DNA from: Chlamydiia bacterium
Lineage (GTDB): Bacteria; Chlamydiota; Chlamydiia; Chlamydiales; Parachlamydiaceae
Direction of reading: 5' to 3'
Assembly: GCA_038257035.1 (NCBI GenBank)
Contig: JBBSJT010000013.1
Coordinates: 1 to 31,243, forward strand
Length of the DNA stretch: 31,243 nucleotides
Shown here: positions 18,001 to 27,000 of the stretch, piece by piece
Layout of the letters: every line of letters starts with the position of its first letter
Position numbering within the stretch: the first letter of the stretch is position 1
Position numbers: made by a program

Positions 18001-21000
18001 AATACCTATTGATAAGTTCTTAAATGACACATCTTGCACTATGACATGAGGTATACAATAATCTTAAAAAACCGGTTATAGCATAATGAAGAAGATTAGG
18101 CAAGTCACTTAAAAGACCAGCTCTCATATTAGCGAAATTCATCTCGCTTGCCGGGAACAAGCCACCATACGCTAACCAACTTTGCGATGATAACAGCAAC
18201 AAATAACTGTCCGAACATTGCTTCTAGGGCGGTGAGGGATTTTGCTAAATGGCTAAGAGGCGTAATGTCTCCCATTCCCAAGGTGGCCAAAGTTGCGTAG
18301 CTATAATATAAAAAATTAAACTGTTGTTCATAAGCATTATGTAGAGTCGTGCTATCAAAATTCAATATCCCTGCTCCATGGAAACTTCCGGGATTCAACA
18401 TATTCTCGATGAAATAAAAATTTGCCCATAGTATGCCTGATAGTAGGTACACCATTAATGCTCCGAAGATAAGATAAGCATTGACAAGGCCTGCATATAA
18501 GATTTTTCTCATTAAAACGACAATAGCAAGTAACGTAAAAGCCAAAGAAAATCCATATGCAATAATCATATAAGGCAAAGAATGATTAAGAAAACTTAAT
18601 GAATCAAAATAAATGAATGGGATCAGAAAAAAAAGTCCCTTAATCAAAAATGATCGTTGACCATCGATTGCGTAAACGGAAGAGAGAATCAATAGAATAA
18701 AACTGCATTGAAGAAGTGAATGGGTATAGAAATTTTTTTCAAATATAGGAACGATAAAAAAAATAGCTATAACGGCTAAAAATGCTCCAAAAAATCCCCC
18801 AACATGCCAGTTGCTTGTTTTATTACTATTAATGTTATATTCTTCTGTTTTAGTCTCCATATTACTCCTTTTGTCCATTATATTGGTAAATGCAATAAGT
18901 CTCGCTAATTGCAAAGCTAATTATAGCAATCGTCTTATTTAAAGATAAGAAAGAAAATCGTTTGAGGCTATTTCTCAAACATTTGTATAATCAAGCAAAA
19001 ATTTTTTCTTCATTTACTTTAAAATAAAGGCATTCAGGCATTCTTTTGATTCCATCCTTCTTTTTGGCATCTCAAAAATCAGTTTTATATCTTATTGAAA
19101 AAGCATAATTGACTTTAAGAAGGCGACAAGATACGCTAATTTTTTACTTTTATTGCTACCGCTCTCGCCGGTTATCAATGATGATCACGAACAAACTTTA
19201 TTAAAAAATCGACCTCACTTTAGGATAAAAAAACAAATGTTAAAATTCATAATTGGATCACTTGGCACAATGATGCTAGCGACTATTTCACTTTTTTCTG
19301 AAATTTCTTTGGGAGAAACACTCGAGACACAAATGTGGGAAGATATGAAGCATGCGAACTACAAAGCTATTGAAGAGAAAATTGCAAATGAGTTCCAGTC
19401 CGTTCACACCTTTGGTACATTGACCCGCGATGCAGAGATAGAACTCATAAAAAAATTGTATCTTGGAAACTATGAAATCAGCGATTTAAAAACCACAGAA
19501 AACCAAGATACAATTGTTGTCACCTATCTTATTTCTGTAAGGGAAAAAATCGACAACCATCAGCTTTCTGAAAAGCCTGCACCCCGTATGAGTGTGTGGA
19601 AAAAAAATAATGACAAATGGCAATGGATTGCTCATGCAAACCTTAAGGTGATCCCGGCGAATCAGATAAAATCAAACCTACCGGTGCCCAAGAAATAAGA
19701 CTCATAGTTAACTCTTCGATGCTTTTTAAAGGATATGCACCGCCACTTCGTGGTCATGCATATCCTAAAAAAGTTACAGACCAAAAGTAATCTTATAGCT
19801 TTCGTCAAACGAGAAAAATAATATTATGAAATCATCAGAAAAAAAAACTAAACTTGAAGTACTTCTAGCATTTTGGGAAAAACTTGCGAATGTAAAGCAA
19901 CTTAACTTTAATGCAAACTCCAACGCTAACAGTGAATGGAATGGCAAAGGAGAAGTCATCTCTACAAGCAGCAGTAGGGATGTATTAATATTTAATGAAA
20001 AAGGGACTTGGGCCTGTAAGCCGGGGGTAGATGTGGAGTTCAGTAATGTATTTCGCTGGACTCTTGACCGAGATGCTCAAATGATTTCTCTAGAACACCT
20101 ACGCTATGGATCCCTTAATCCGGTTTTTCTTTTTCACCTTACACCTTCTGGCAACCACTCCTTATCATCTGTTGACCCACATCTTTGTTGTAAAGACTCT
20201 TATTTTGGACAAATTCATTTTAACAGTCATACCATTCAATTCAATTGGAAAGTGATCGGTCCTAGAAAGAATGAAGAACTCTATTACTGCTACTCTTAAA
20301 AGTATGTTCAATTTGCTTTTTTGACTTAATGTAATTTATGGTAATGAAATTTAATTCTTAAACTAGAGGCAAAATTTAAAGCTATTACCTATCAAATTAA
20401 ATGACATGATGGACTTGGCCTATTTGCTCCGGTTCTTCTGTAATGATTGACGAAAAAAATCGGAATCATTGGTTATCAATGATTTGAATGTTTAATTTTT
20501 TTTTATTGCTAAAATTTATTTTAAAATATACAAATAGATTTCCCTTCAGGGTTCAAACAAAAAAACGGTTGAACAGATTTTTTTTTTATTTAGTTGTGTA
20601 AACCTAAAAGATAAGGTAACCATGAGATATTCTCGTACTTTAAGTTTATTTATTTCTCTTTCACTAAGTAACTTTTGCCTGCAGGCTGTTACTGCAGAGT
20701 CAAAAACAAACGATTTTTCAAAGCTATCATTTGTAAAAAAAGATGATTATTCAGCTTTTCCCCTTCTTGACAGAACGATTATTATTTCAGATGAGTTTTC
20801 CGAAATCAATGTTTCAGACCATAAGTCAATGAAAACAGAACCCGTAAAAACAATTCTAAATGGTGGGTTATTATCGGTTGTTTGGGAAAATCAAGAAGAA
20901 ACTTTTCTGATTGTAGATTCCTTCGAATACGATTCAAAAATGAGATCAGAACAAAACTTTGATGAAGCTCTAAAAGATAATCTCAATATGATCGGAAGTT

Positions 21001-24000: not shown

Positions 24001-27000
24001 CTTTTTAATAACGACTCAGGAGAACAAAATACGGCTTGCGGTGTACTGGCACTTTTTGATAATACAACGGGTAGCTTTAATACTGGCTTAGGGTATTCAG
24101 CGAATGTTTCATCTGGGAGCCTTGTGAATGCTACAGCTTTAGGTGCTATTGCAATTGTAAATGCAAGCAATAAAGTTCGTATAGGAAACACTTTAGTGAC
24201 CGTTGTCGAAGGTCAAGTCGCCTACACTTTCCCTTCAGATGGACGCATTAAAAAAGATGTAAGAAATAATGTACCGGGTCTATCTTTTATTATGAAATTA
24301 CGTCCGGTTACCTACCATCTCGATATGGATAAAGTGGCGGAATTGATGCAAACCCCCGAGAATCAACGATCAACAGTTGACGAAAGTTTTCAGGCTCAAA
24401 TATTGAAAACAGGTTTTATCGCCCAAGAAGTTGAAATTGCGGCCAATGAAATCAACTATGAGTTTGATGGAGTTATTAAGCCGGAAAGTGAATCTGGATA
24501 CTATGGATTATCTTACTCAAGTTTTGTGGTTCCCTTGGTTAAGGCTGTTCAAGAGCAACAAGAGATGCTTAACTCATTAAATGAGAGCGAACAACAACAA
24601 CTGGAGACCGTTAATTCACTGATAAACAGCGCACAAAAACTGCAATTGATAGTTAATGAATTAAAATTCGCTGGTTAATACTACAAACAGCTAAGTTCTA
24701 AGAAAAATTAGGTTGCTGAGACTTCATAATTTTTCTTTAGAACCAAAAAAACAGGCCCTCCGTGCGGGTTCTAAAAAAATTAAGCCAAAGAAACAATGAT
24801 GTCTAAATTTAAAAGTTAAATAAGTTGACATTAAGAAGGATGATTATGCGATATTTTGATAGTTTAAGTTTATGTTCTTTTATAATAATTGGTGGTGTCT
24901 CTTTAAATCCACTTTTGGGAGAATCCAAAAAAAATGATGTTTCCATTATATCATCCCTTGAACGAAATGATTTTTCAAATCTTCCTTTGATGGACAGAAC
25001 CATCATTACTCTTGATGAATTTATCGATCACAACATTTCAGACCCAAAAAAAACCAAACAGGAACCAATTAAAACCCTTCTGAATAAAGGCCTTCTGTCA
25101 GTAGTTTTTGAGGATGAAGAACAAACTTATCTGATTGTCGATTCTTACGAATATGATTTAAATATACTTTGCGAATACGACAAGATTGAGGTATTAAAGA
25201 ATAATCTCGACATTATCGGTCATAACTCCTATCAACATCTATCTCAAAGGATGGGCGCAACCGGAGCCACTGGCGCAACGGGTCCGATGGGCCCTCAAGG
25301 CGCTCTTGGTTCAACAGGTGCTACAGGCGCTACTGGTGCTATAGGTCCTACAGGTCGTACTGGTGCTACGGGTGCAAGAGGGCCAACAGGTGCGACCGGA
25401 ATTGATGGACAAACAGGTGCAACAGGAATTACAGGTTTGACAGGCTTAAGAGGTGCAACGGGTGTTACTGGTGCTACAGGACAAACAGGAGCTTCCGTTA
25501 CCGGGGCTACGGGCCCAAGGGGTCCAACAGGAGCACAAGGTGGTAGTGGCATCGGTGTAACCGGTGTAACAGGTATTACAGGAGCTACAGGAATAACAGG
25601 AGCTACGGGTGCCCAGGGAGCTACTGCAATAGGAACTATTGGGCCAACAGGTCCAACAGGAAGCTCTGATAACTGGTTGACTACAGGAAACACCGGAACA
25701 AGCCCTGGGACAAACTTTATAGGGACTACAGATGCCAATGCGTTCCTTATAGCAACCAATAACAATACAACAGAGGGAACTCGTTTTACTTTAAAAGGAG
25801 CGATTGAACCCTTAGGATTTAACCAATCTGCCTTCTTGGGCGAAAGAGCTGGATTTAATGCTACCGGTTTAGGAAATAATACCCTTATTGGCTACGAATC
25901 GGGTTTGGGGATATCATCAACCTTTAACAATAACAACACAAGTGTCGGTTCACAGAGTCTCTCTTTGGGTCTATTTAACGAAAATGTTGTTTCTGTAGGG
26001 CACCTATCATTGTACAGGCATGGAAATAACGCATCCACCGGTGTTGGTTATCAGGCGGGTTTTAACATGATTAATCCATCTGGATTTTCTTCATCAACAA
26101 ACGTTGCTTTTGGATATCAAACTTTTGGTTTCAATCAATTTGTCAATAATAGCATTGCTTTTGGTTACCGTACACTTTCAAACATTAATGCCACTCTTGG
26201 AGCTAATGGAGAGGTTGACGGATTCGGTGCTACCGCAGATACTTCCGGGAATAACATTAGATATTGTAGCGCAATTGGTTATGGTGCTATTACCAATGCG
26301 ACCGGTAAAATTCGCATAGGGAATACTGCTGTTACTGTTATTGAAGGTCAAGTTGCCTATACAGTATCATCTGATGGTCGTTTTAAGACAGATATTGCAG
26401 AAACCGTTCCGGGCTTATCTTTTATATTAAAGTTGAAACCTGTGACTTATCATCTTGATATGGATCAAATGGCAGCCCTTATGCAAACACCCGACTCTTT
26501 AAGGATGCCTGAGGCAGAAAGCTTGCACGGTCAAATTTTGAAAACAGGTTTTATAGCGCAGGATGTTGAGCTTGCAGCAAATGAAATCAACTATGATTTT
26601 GATGGGATAAATAAGCCGCATGATGAAACAGGTTATTATACCTTAGCCTATGATAGCTTTGTAACTCCTTTAGTAAAAGCAGTCCAGGAACAGCAGGAGA
26701 CGATAGATCAGCTAAGCAAACAGACAGAGCAAAGACAAGAGATTATCAATATGTTAACAGATATGTTGCAACAGCAGCAATTAACGATTAACGCGTTAAA
26801 TAATTCTCTTTAAATTCTATAGTCAGCACCCCTGCTAAAACTTTAGCAGGGGTTTTCCAATGCCGTCTAAATGTCATAAGATTTAATTATTAAAAGATTT
26901 CTCCTTAAAAAAACAATTAGAGAATTAATTTCAAAATAGAATTCACTCTTTCAGGAAGTGGTTTTGTTGAGATTTTAAGACATTCATATCCAAAACTGGC

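Follow-up and report, generated by a model that had tools for sequence, protein, structure and literature searches.

The genes at positions 20622 to 26813 of a 31,243-nucleotide stretch of a Parachlamydiaceae genome (the window) resemble phage tail fibers, and the question is what such genes do in a chlamydial bacterium. Three tandem ORFs on the plus strand, gA, gB, and gC, encode proteins of 648, 649, and 655 aa. The initial annotation had given each a signal-peptide-like start, an N-terminal domain (N-domain), a collagen stretch, a body, and a Peptidase_S74 (S74) domain, and the ORFs and Pfam bear this architecture out. The one sequencing run listed with this stretch is of soil metagenome DNA. 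The features are:

20622..22568, plus strand: gA, fiber gene 1, an ORF of 648 aa with Pfam Collagen and Peptidase_S74 and PHROG tail spike and tail fiber matches
20622..20696, plus strand: gA putative signal peptide, aa 1–25
20697..21026, plus strand: gA shared N-domain, aa 26–135 (alignments with 19–20 invariant columns; family profile 163 bits)
21030..21443, plus strand: gA collagen stalk, aa 137–274, 44 Gly-X-Y triplets with Thr at 30 Y positions
21444..22121, plus strand: gA neck and YadA-like repeat head, aa 275–500, by homology to the gB body (64% identity)
22122..22565, plus strand: gA S74 chaperone from Ser501 (SDKRIK) and C-terminal helix
22729..24678, plus strand: gB, fiber gene 2, 649 aa from ATG (alternative TTG start at 22699 possible)
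22729..22803, plus strand: gB putative signal peptide
22804..23142, plus strand: gB shared N-domain, four strands and a C-terminal helix in the AlphaFold2 model
23146..23517, plus strand: gB collagen stalk, aa 140–263, 40 triplets
23554..24234, plus strand: gB neck and YadA-like beta-roll head (model and structural matches)
24235..24675, plus strand: gB S74 chaperone from Ser503 (SDGRIK) and 53-residue C-terminal helix
24846..26813, plus strand: gC, fiber gene 3, 655 aa from ATG (alternative TTG start at 24825 possible)
24846..24920, plus strand: gC putative signal peptide
24921..25253, plus strand: gC shared N-domain (alignment of eight N-termini, family profile)
25254..25667, plus strand: gC collagen stalk, aa 137–274, 44 triplets
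25668..26369, plus strand: gC neck and divergent repeat head (repeats 36–37% identical to gA/gB)
26370..26810, plus strand: gC S74 chaperone from Ser509 (SDGRFK) and C-terminal helix

In all three proteins, both Collagen (51.8–59.9 bits; cut-off 27.2 bits) and Peptidase_S74 (30–33.9 bits; cut-off 22 bits) exceed their Pfam cut-offs, and the stalks hold 40–44 Gly-X-Thr-type triplets, with Thr at 23–30 Y positions. The first 25 residues of gA begin basic, continue into a hydrophobic stretch (12-residue Kyte-Doolittle means of up to 1.82), and end in small residues ahead of Glu26. The repeat head is the part in which gC differs most from gA and gB, the neck being 66–79% and the S74 core 67% identical; gC also lacks the Cys found at the collagen junction in the alignment of N-termini. 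PHROG matches of gA to a tail spike family (phrog_4636, E = 1.6e-46) and a tail fiber family (phrog_6320, E = 3.7e-40) reproduced the earlier figures exactly, and gB and gC match both families too.

The body had been described as a phage tail-fiber or tailspike body, a reading that the structural matches do not support. The AlphaFold monomer model of the gB body (pLDDT 82) matched best the heads of trimeric autotransporter adhesins: BoaA (3s6l_E; Z 15.5, rmsd 2.6 Å, 130 residues aligned, 29% identity), BpaC (Z 15.2), and YadA (1p9h; Z 15.1), followed by CbpF, UspA1, EibD, and AtaA (Z 12.7–14.6), while generic left-handed beta-helices reached Z 11.6 at most. Judged from this model, the gB body is an adhesin head with a YadA-like beta-roll. 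In the S74 part, the Ser and Lys of the dyad (S233 and K238) stay unchanged throughout 38 aligned rows, relatives included; Foldseek returned phage intramolecular chaperones (3gud, 3gw6) as well as the MyRF ICA (7dc3), and the S74 profile matched the distal subunit of a phage long tail fiber (6f45_A) with E = 0.0039. The nearest sequence relatives of the body are thousands of cellular proteins named "tail fiber domain-containing" (38–53% identity, E = 1e-143 to 1e-108), and those with an organism name all come from Bacteroidota or Ignavibacteriae. Among the 25 phage matches listed, identity is 25–36%, scores do not exceed 149 bits, and none spans 80% of the query. The cellular relatives are thus much closer than the phage records, so direct domestication from a phage is not demonstrated.

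The three genes belong to a larger paralogous family. A tblastn search with the N-terminal 135 aa recovered the eight places previously noted (three on this contig, one on C24, two on C83, two on C103), as well as a short remnant at C24:1661–1902. The ORF lengths of the five paralogues on the three other contigs agree with those given before (609, 888/898, 894, 325, and 397 aa), and the eight aligned N-termini again show 20 invariant columns, with 34–50% identity to the first row. The family is modular, as had been proposed: a signal peptide, a common N-domain, and a collagen stalk lead to an S74-matured head in six members and a short head in two. The existence of shorter heads stands, and we refine their identity to the BclB-type exosporium domain (TIGR03721; both on C103, at 142.6 and 70.4 bits against a cut-off of 93.15 bits).

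The shared N-domain (~105 aa) is rare, and in several respects less restricted than first reported. We confirmed five places in one genome of the same genus (G002), but the claim that it is absent from 399 other Chlamydiales is contradicted by one place in a second genome of the genus (G001) and two tandem places in another genus (G018). Likewise, the reported three proteins in 5.8 billion compare with 15 hits at E ≤ 1e-3 when 1.84 billion representatives were searched with a profile; 13 of the hits appear genuine, including at least two from the genome itself. Rather than being genus-restricted, the domain therefore spans two genera of the family, along with six metagenome loci. The gB N-domain model (AlphaFold2 monomer; pLDDT 74.1, pTM 0.68) found no convincing match in the PDB or among viral folds; without a recognizable fold relative, a docking role is argued from position and conservation only.

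Other genera and families of the order combine different N-modules with the same overall layout, in which a signal peptide, N-module, Cys, and collagen lead to either S74 or a BclB head. S74 occurs in 10 of 400 sampled genomes of the order, which does not bear out the earlier count of 6 in 559, and the BclB head occurs in 22 of 401.

We consider it somewhat probable that the eight paralogues are Sec-exported, homotrimeric, surface-anchored fiber adhesins with a stalk of ~35–39 nm. A signal peptide would carry each chain across the inner membrane. The C-terminal S74 intramolecular chaperone would trimerize three chains and act as the template for the collagen triple helix and YadA-like beta-roll head as they fold. 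Self-cleavage of S74 at the conserved Ser (SDxRxK) would then free a fragment of ~147 aa. At the cell-proximal end of the mature fiber, the N-domain would dock all paralogues to one envelope element, and the Cys adjoining the start of the collagen may fasten the chains to one another. The remainder of the fiber would be its Gly-X-Thr collagen stalk, carrying at the distal end an adhesive head that varies among paralogues and may bind surface structures of the presumed protist host during attachment or entry. The surface hair layer binding amoebae that was originally proposed is still an inference.

The closest known system is the mosaic adhesive trimer (MAT) fiber superfamily of Bdellovibrio bacteriovorus, a published precedent for the concept. 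As described by Caulton et al. 2024 (PMC10769870), MAT fibers have a demonstrated surface location and form a multi-gene family in a cell-invading bacterium; a signal peptide is followed by a conserved ~130 aa N-terminal domain without PDB homologue, thought to hold the fiber on the cell, and then by a trimeric stalk. Their tips are S74 autoproteolytic chaperones with SDxxxK in 13 of 21 and other adhesive domains, including TNF-like ones, in 8 of 21, to which the chlamydial split of six S74 and two BclB-type tips is a counterpart. Given that this plan is shared with prey-binding fibers, gA, gB, and gC probably aid sticking to the host cell. The systems differ in that the chlamydial stalk is a collagen triple helix, whereas that of MAT is an intertwined beta-helix or beta-prism; in the YadA-like head; and in the target, presumably a eukaryote here and a bacterium there. 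The chlamydial fibers are, in addition, predicted from sequence and structural models. We saw no kinship of the N-domains, judging by 11 inspected hits of the exhaustive profile search, all with the plan of the chlamydial family, rather than by direct comparison.

Two other groups resemble the family in the body. The "tail fiber domain-containing" proteins of Bacteroidota and relatives are homologous to 70–100% of the gB body (neck, NTAxGxxAL repeats, and S74), and join the N-module PF26696 to either a gB-type body or a BclB head; a full-text literature search found no experimental work on them. They lack the chlamydial N-domain and the collagen stalk (PF01391 in 2 of 120 matches listed, both members of the chlamydial family), and 13 of the 120 listed end in the T9SS sorting domain PF18962, a route not evident in the chlamydial fibers. 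Trimeric autotransporter adhesins (YadA, BoaA, UspA1, CbpF) share the left-handed parallel beta-roll of ~14–17-residue repeats and the form of a stalked trimer, a state predicted for the chlamydial proteins. We rejected membership in that family on four counts: the polarity is reversed, with the head C-terminal; the C-terminal beta-barrel anchor is missing; the stalk is collagen rather than coiled coil; and trimerization would proceed through a discarded S74 chaperone.

BclA carries Gly-X-Thr repeats, and the stalks of gA, gB, and gC are of this type. The fibers could be a protective or structural coat, a hair-like nap on an extracellular spore-like form that chiefly shields the cell or sets its surface properties, in the manner of the BclA/BclB nap of Bacillus and Clostridioides spores. 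The BclB-type heads, whose relatives share ~50% identity with C. difficile BclA3 and with Paenibacillus BclB-related proteins, favor this reading, as does a C6 protein whose match to BclA (1wck_A, E = 3.9e-9, residues 39–201) we reproduced. The genome also has rmlC and rmlD, and two fiber genes directly follow rmlC-rmlD in one metagenome relative. BclA/BclB and the collagen-like adhesins of Pasteuria likewise place a C-terminal trimeric head on such a stalk behind an N-terminal attachment part, and PMC13233619 ties radiated, same-strand triplets of collagen-like genes in Pasteuria ramosa to host attachment. The chlamydial N-domain is unrelated to theirs, and the chlamydial organism is Gram-negative, non-sporulating, and obligately intracellular. 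We regard a coat as unlikely: the heads of gA, gB, and gC are YadA-like with S74 rather than BclB. BclB-type heads are present in non-sporulating Bacteroidota too, so the domain is not spore-bound, and tips that vary while the base stays constant are more in keeping with ligand recognition than with a uniform coat. Nap and adhesin roles are, moreover, compatible with each other.

Rather than being anchored to the cell, the fibers might be released into the inclusion lumen or medium, acting as matrix, in cell aggregation, or on the host at a distance. Only a Sec-type signal is visible: gA, gB, and gC carry no lipobox and, by Pfam, neither a YadA anchor nor a T9SS sorting domain, and we found no inverse-autotransporter barrel, outer-membrane anchor, or dedicated secretion partner in this genome, which also counts against the anchored adhesin. 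Some MAT proteins end up in a vesicle that is deposited, according to PMC10769870. Against this stand the N-domain, which lies opposite the variable tips and is conserved in all eight paralogues and a second genus, arguing for a common docking site, and two relatives in which an outer-membrane barrel gene directly adjoins the fiber genes (IAT_beta, 15 nt downstream, in G068; Legionella_OMP-type, upstream, in L017). We therefore think release quite unlikely.

That these are parts of an unrecognized prophage, tailocin, or contractile injection system, or of a misbinned phage of another organism, is very improbable despite the PHROG matches, the fame of S74 from phage fibers, and one related 2.7-kb contig binned as Cytophagales. 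Phage fibers and tailspikes (K1F endosialidase, T5 pb1, S16 gp37) do share an S74 with the Ser-Lys dyad at the fiber C-terminus, and some contain stretches resembling collagen (PHROG "collagen like minor tail" matches), but the chlamydial genes have putative signal peptides and no virion context. As first noted, no phage structural gene lies beside them: we found no phage Pfam family among the 27 ORFs of the window and no structural PHROG among 44 neighboring ORFs taken from this genome and from two relatives. The 95.8%-complete genome contains no match to sheath, gp25, HK97 capsid, or terminase (Terminase_6N), although the controls were recovered, and none of 134 candidates for the N-domain in 2.9 million viral contigs was confirmed. 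To our knowledge, the only phages of chlamydiae are Microviridae, which have no tail fibers. The fiber genes are cellular, chromosomal genes of the uncultured Parachlamydiaceae bacterium. Their neighbors are ordinary housekeeping genes. In relatives they lie within long chlamydial chromosome pieces (position 1.63 Mb on a contig of 1.78 Mb) or between rmlD and rpoN, a backbone also present in this genome, and the relatives' loci carry a TopA-SWIB fusion, DnaK, EF-P, and RpoN. The GC3 of the fiber-gene parts (0.23–0.33) matches that of the genome's long ORFs (0.297 ± 0.036).

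The fibre genes gA, gB and gC lie head to tail on the window, and their products are 53–60% identical in pairs:

20622–22568, + strand, gA, ORF of 648 aa
22729–24678, + strand, gB, ORF of 649 aa counted from ATG
24846–26813, + strand, gC, ORF of 655 aa counted from ATG

Each gene has the same order of parts: an N-terminus, an N-domain of ~105 aa, a Gly-X-Y stretch, a neck, repeats, the self-cleaving chaperone Peptidase_S74 (S74), and a long C-terminal helix. Judged by eye and hydropathy only, the N-termini, basic and then hydrophobic, look like Sec signal peptides; no conserved Cys occupies a lipobox position. 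The stalks, for which we infer a collagen triple helix, contain 40–44 Gly-X-Y triplets with a longest unbroken run of 26–27 and Thr in 23–30 Y positions. They match Collagen (PF01391) at 51.8–59.9 bits (cut-off 27.2), and their interruptions are short and in the same register across all three proteins. The neck carries the conserved motif WxxxGNxGTxPGxNFxGTTDN... and is followed by a run of NTAxGxxAL-type repeats. S74 (PF13884) scores 30.0–33.9 bits (gathering cut-off 22) and starts with the S-D-x-x-x-K arrangement, as defined in PMC10769870 (SDKRIK at 501 in gA, SDGRIK at 503 in gB, and SDGRFK at 509 in gC); the catalytic Ser and Lys are invariant in an alignment of 38 relatives. The gene and domain family described in the initial annotation is thereby confirmed, and its PHROG numbers were reproduced. 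Promoter-like and terminator-like sites occurred at the level of chance (18 versus 17.0 ± 4.6 expected, and 8 versus 5.7 ± 2.7).

We found the N-domain at eight places in this genome by tblastn: three on C13 (the window), one on contig C24, and two each on contigs C83 and C103. It directly follows the signal peptide in all eight paralogues, with 20 invariant columns in the alignment of the N-termini. The C24 and C83 paralogues also match Collagen and S74 above cut-off, and the C83 fibres continue for 225 residues after the S74 Ser, compared with 147–148 in gA, gB, and gC, so that some 80 residues more follow the chaperone. Fibres of the C83 type, including proteins P0127 and P0128 and locus L021, have an extra beta-rich C-terminal domain after S74, in the last ~130 aa, that matched nothing in Pfam. 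The C103 paralogues end in a 160–170-aa head that is the BclB-related exosporium domain TIGR03721; relative to the curated cut-off of 93.15, C103a lies above (142.6 bits) and C103b below (70.4 bits, E 1.9e-19). TIGR03721 has no match in gA, gB, or gC, and no Pfam model matches the C103 heads. Their relatives, at ~50% identity, are Clostridioides difficile BclA3, BclB-related proteins of Paenibacillus and Bacillus, and proteins of Pedobacter and Dyadobacter; BclA was not found in PDB sequence searches with whole C103a or a BclB-head profile. A census of collagen-like ORFs identified two further exported collagen proteins without the N-domain, on contigs C6 and C61, and the match of the C6 protein to BclA (1wck_A, E 3.9e-9) was obtained again. 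In seven of the eight paralogues a Cys precedes the first Gly-X-Y by three to eight residues, and a Cys before the collagen also occurs in the C6 protein and in fibres of other genera. Cystine knots occur at collagen ends, and by analogy this residue could act as an inter-chain staple. Upstream of the C24 fibre gene, at a distance of 1.4 kb, an open frame of 76 aa (L001, G000:C24, 1661–1902) matches the N-domain at E 6e-4 to 9e-4 and may be a decayed paralogue.

The N-domain had been called genus-restricted. When 1.84 billion representative proteins were searched with a profile built from the eight domains, 15 matched at E ≤ 1e-3, the weakest two being multi-stretch repeat matches. The 11 matches inspected share one plan of signal peptide, N-domain, and collagen; those of full length go on to either an S74 body or a BclB head. 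Among whole genomes, the domain is present in 4 of 41 relatives and in 5 of 73 genomes of the family: all three of the same genus, one of another genus (two tandem genes), and one that we discounted as a carrier (a marginal 57-aa match). It also occurs in six JGI metagenome loci and was not found among 2.9 million viral contigs. From these profile, genome, and metagenome counts we conclude that the N-domain is very rare, though not confined to a single genus; the genome of another genus and the metagenome loci contradict the claimed restriction. The N-domain model (19 sequences; pLDDT 74.1, pTM 0.68) comprises four strands plus a C-terminal helix running into the collagen. Searches for fold relatives gave none that was convincing (Foldseek against the PDB, best E 0.33; VIA wide, best Z 4.9; viral structures in BFVD, best E 0.17) and no usable match in the ESM Atlas. 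We saw no relationship by hhalign between the N-domain and the N-regions of fibres from two relatives (probability 0.2% for G084 and 2.5% for G068). An 84.6% hhalign match of alignment A4 was set aside, being confined to the last helix and the start of the collagen.

The body that follows the collagen (neck, repeats, and S74) had been read as a phage tail-fibre or tailspike body. With gB residues 280–649 as the query, 8,000 candidates were scored and at least 7,925 relatives found at E ≤ 1e-3. Among the 120 best matches listed, rows 3–120 have E-values of 1e-143 to 1e-108 and 38–53% identity; each of the nine rows with an NCBI organism name comes from Bacteroidota or Ignavibacteriae, a T9SS sorting domain is present in 13, 8 bear the JGI name 'trimeric autotransporter adhesin', and collagen is present in two, gB itself and a 76%-identical relative. 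Of 50,697 phage records, 57 matched the gB body, none covering 80% of the query; the best 25 of these 57 are 25.5–36.4% identical at no more than 149 bits, and six records whose best place is 60–80% identical all lie outside the best 25. An AlphaFold2 model of gB 271–649 (38 aligned sequences, pLDDT 82), ranked in a second look over Foldseek's 364 best chains, matched BoaA best (3s6l_E; Z 15.5, rmsd 2.6 Å, 130 residues, 29% identity), followed by the heads of BpaC (7o23, Z 15.2) and YadA (1p9h, Z 15.1); CbpF, UspA1, EibD, and AtaA gave Z 12.7–14.6, and GlmU-/LpxA-type beta-helices at most 11.6. By E-value the Foldseek matches are weak (0.026 or above), but the top rows hold the same heads together with the MyRF ICA domain and phage intramolecular chaperones. 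In sequence searches of the PDB, the body alignment profile matched a phage long tail fibre distal subunit in its S74 part (6f45_A, E 0.0039), the gB body alone matched nothing at E ≤ 1, and whole gB matched only collagen, including a weak match to BclA collagen; the Pfam YadA_head model gave no score at E ≤ 0.01 in gA, gB, or gC. Because YadA-like heads rank first structurally, the nearest relatives are cellular, and the phage matches are weaker, we conclude that the supposed tail-fibre or tailspike body is an adhesin-type beta-roll head with an S74 chaperone, whose immediate kin are cellular. At depth, the body may still have a phage origin.

The repeats are the most divergent part of the body: gC is 36–37% identical to gA and gB in the repeats, whereas identity reaches 66–79% for the neck and 67% for the S74 core, and this greater divergence fits heads that may bind different ligands. 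A quick, unrooted maximum-likelihood tree of 38 bodies combined 8 chlamydial rows with 30 matches picked by length (520–721 aa) from the 120 listed. In it the window-type clade had support of 99, the C24-type clade 100, and the other 29 rows formed one group (90). The chlamydial bodies may be of single origin.

We considered whether the genes come from a prophage, a tailocin, or a mis-binned phage. The body matches phage records, as described. The window is the whole of contig C13 (31,243 bases) in a genome of 2.37 Mb and 210 contigs, 95.8% complete. Its 27 other ORFs code for ordinary cell proteins, such as a beta-lactamase-fold protein, a pair of APH kinases, a GNAT protein, an Na/Ca exchanger, a SOUL and an F-box protein, and none is a phage structural gene; unlike the tail fibres of phage virions, gA, gB, and gC therefore lie outside any phage structural gene block. 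On other contigs the fibre genes neighbour LspA, DksA, HemF, FabI-like, and F-box-like genes. A structural PHROG was found in 0 of 44 neighbouring ORFs in this genome and two relatives, and sheath, gp25, HK97 capsid, and Terminase_6N had no match genome-wide, where control genomes matched; the initial observation that no phage structural gene lies beside the fibres was borne out. TopA-SWIB fusions are a chlamydial hallmark, and metagenome relatives of the N-domain genes adjoin such a fusion, EF-P, AccBC, FtsY, and RpoN. Related loci are assigned 'MAG: Parachlamydiaceae bacterium', and the genes of one metagenome locus run SucC-FtsY-RmlC-RmlD-[two fibre genes]-RpoN, with the same backbone and no fibre genes on our contig C11. 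GC3 in every part of gA, gB, and gC is 0.23–0.33, a range also usual for long ORFs of the genome (0.297 ± 0.036); the collagen parts therefore owe their high G+C to Gly, Thr, Ala, and Pro codons. The DUF6314 gene upstream has a homologue in a same-genus genome (71% nucleotide identity), at a contig end. Taken together, a phage source for the fibre genes is unlikely, and we favor chromosomal genes of the chlamydial cell. L021, a 2.7-kb contig binned as Cytophagales with two tandem C83-type fibre genes bearing the N-domain, is probably a mis-binned Parachlamydiaceae contig.

Among known systems, type Vc trimeric autotransporter adhesins share the YadA-like head fold of the gB model. The fibres here lack the C-terminal YadA anchor barrel, match only Collagen and Peptidase_S74, and end in S74 and a helix; without a C-terminal beta-barrel translocator, gA, gB, and gC are therefore not trimeric autotransporter adhesins. 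A closer parallel is provided by the mosaic adhesive trimer (MAT) fibres of Bdellovibrio bacteriovorus. According to PMC10769870, the 21 MAT proteins each have a signal peptide and a conserved ~130-aa N-domain that has no PDB homologue and is presumed to bind the predator surface; thirteen tips contain S74 and eight are of other kinds, including TNF-like, and surface location and glycan binding have been demonstrated. Both families have one conserved domain after the signal peptide in all members, a likeness that concerns the plan and says nothing on ancestry; each of the 11 inspected matches of the N-domain profile had the build of the family here. The MAT stalk is an intertwined trimeric beta-helix, whereas the fibres here have collagen. 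We therefore class the family as probable modular fibre adhesins of the MAT-like kind, in Chlamydiae and with a stalk of collagen. A second analogy, from PMC13233619, is Pasteuria, whose collagen-like adhesins are encoded in same-strand triplets.

The proposed pathway begins with Sec export of the fibre chains, after which the C-terminal S74 chaperone would drive trimerisation and folding, and self-cleavage at the conserved Ser would shed ~147 aa. The mature fibre would consist of the N-domain, a 35–39 nm stalk (124–138 residues at the textbook collagen rise of 0.286 nm per residue), and a distal head, with the constant N-domain docking every paralogue onto one envelope element. The initial interpretation of phage-derived surface fibres is partly supported: it holds for a modular, probably exported family without phage structural genes nearby, and loses its phage tail-fibre body and genus restriction. 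We consider improbable an extended picture with an exosporium-like, collagen-stalked nap on the extracellular form of environmental chlamydiae, interchangeable YadA-, BclB-, and BclA-like heads that would set which protist hosts can be entered, and a heterotrimer of gA, gB, and gC, whose collagen interruptions share one register. Such a heterotrimer would have parallels in C1q and in what the Pasteuria triplets might imply. To our knowledge, how environmental chlamydiae recognize and attach to protist hosts is largely unknown, and the family offers concrete candidates for both steps. If true, the MAT-type design would extend from a bacterial predator to an obligate intracellular symbiont of eukaryotes, with collagen replacing the beta-helix. 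A full-text literature search found no paper on collagen-like proteins of environmental chlamydiae; PMC6050620 lists 'phage tail fiber protein' and 'FliK', unanalysed, as genes common to environmental chlamydiae and Megavirus.

Across the order, S74 is present in 10 of 400 sampled genomes (7 of 217 genera) and the BclB head in 22 of 401 (15 of 217 genera, at least four families). The nearly closed genome G068 has two tandem fibre genes at 1.63 Mb of a 1.78-Mb contig, among sulfatase, isoamylase, SSB, PepA, and CesT chaperone genes. These fibres have a signal peptide, a ~270-aa N-region unrelated to the N-domain, a CCKC motif, and a short Gly-Pro-Pro collagen; the neck after it is the same as here (57% identical to gB across 197 aa), and so are the head and S74. 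Fifteen nucleotides downstream of the second gene lies a 293-aa inverse-autotransporter beta-barrel protein (L035, G068:C3, 13510–14391; E 2.7e-10), and at L017 a Legionella_OMP-type barrel gene is immediately upstream of two tandem fibre genes; these barrel proteins could be anchors or export partners. IAT_beta had no match in our genome. A protein of G084 has a signal peptide, a different N-domain, a Cys, collagen, and a BclB head. We conclude that collagen fibres whose heads are of the BclB or S74-matured kind recur, patchily, in the order, with N-terminal modules that vary by genus, a pattern that points to modular evolution, possibly with exchange with Bacteroidota. Another triplet, of three tandem BclB-headed genes, lies at G262:C2:1082138-1085575. 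At L040 (2918–7086), rmlD and rpoN enclose two BclB-headed N-domain genes, which come right after the dTDP-rhamnose genes, and the L040 backbone is present without fibre genes at G000:C11 2296–5872; rhamnose glycosylation of the Thr-rich stalk is conceivable, the link being a single metagenome locus.

The stretch was found in a single sequencing run, soil metagenome DNA that is perhaps the source sample; no RNA run was listed. Logan contigs of this run reach all 30 bins; identity is at least 99% in 28 of 29 records, depth is 2–7, and none of the contigs listed spans the three-gene array. They contain a small rearranged joint within the gB collagen repeats (23152–23183) and 255-letter loose ends where gB finishes (24669) and near 28145, which at this low depth may be strain variants or assembly ambiguity.

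Elsewhere in the window, an F-box protein with a PolyA-polymerase-head match is encoded at 4244–5218, and four F-box-like paralogues lie to either side of the pair of C83 fibre genes (L002, 188–718, 1275–1994, 1991–2644, and 8457–9203); F-box domains are eukaryote-like and typical for amoeba symbionts. A resistance-type gene cluster (1092–3619 and 9921–12826) comprises a beta-lactamase-fold protein, MarR, a transpeptidase-domain protein, two APH phosphotransferases, RibD_C, and GNAT. A GMC oxidoreductase is split between adjacent ORFs (N part at 5310–6059, the rest at 6075–7058), which may reflect a frameshift or pseudogene. Upstream of tRNA-Met (29013–29090), a non-coding stretch at ~28644–28855 has two same-genus matches at 74–75% identity and may be an interspersed repeat.
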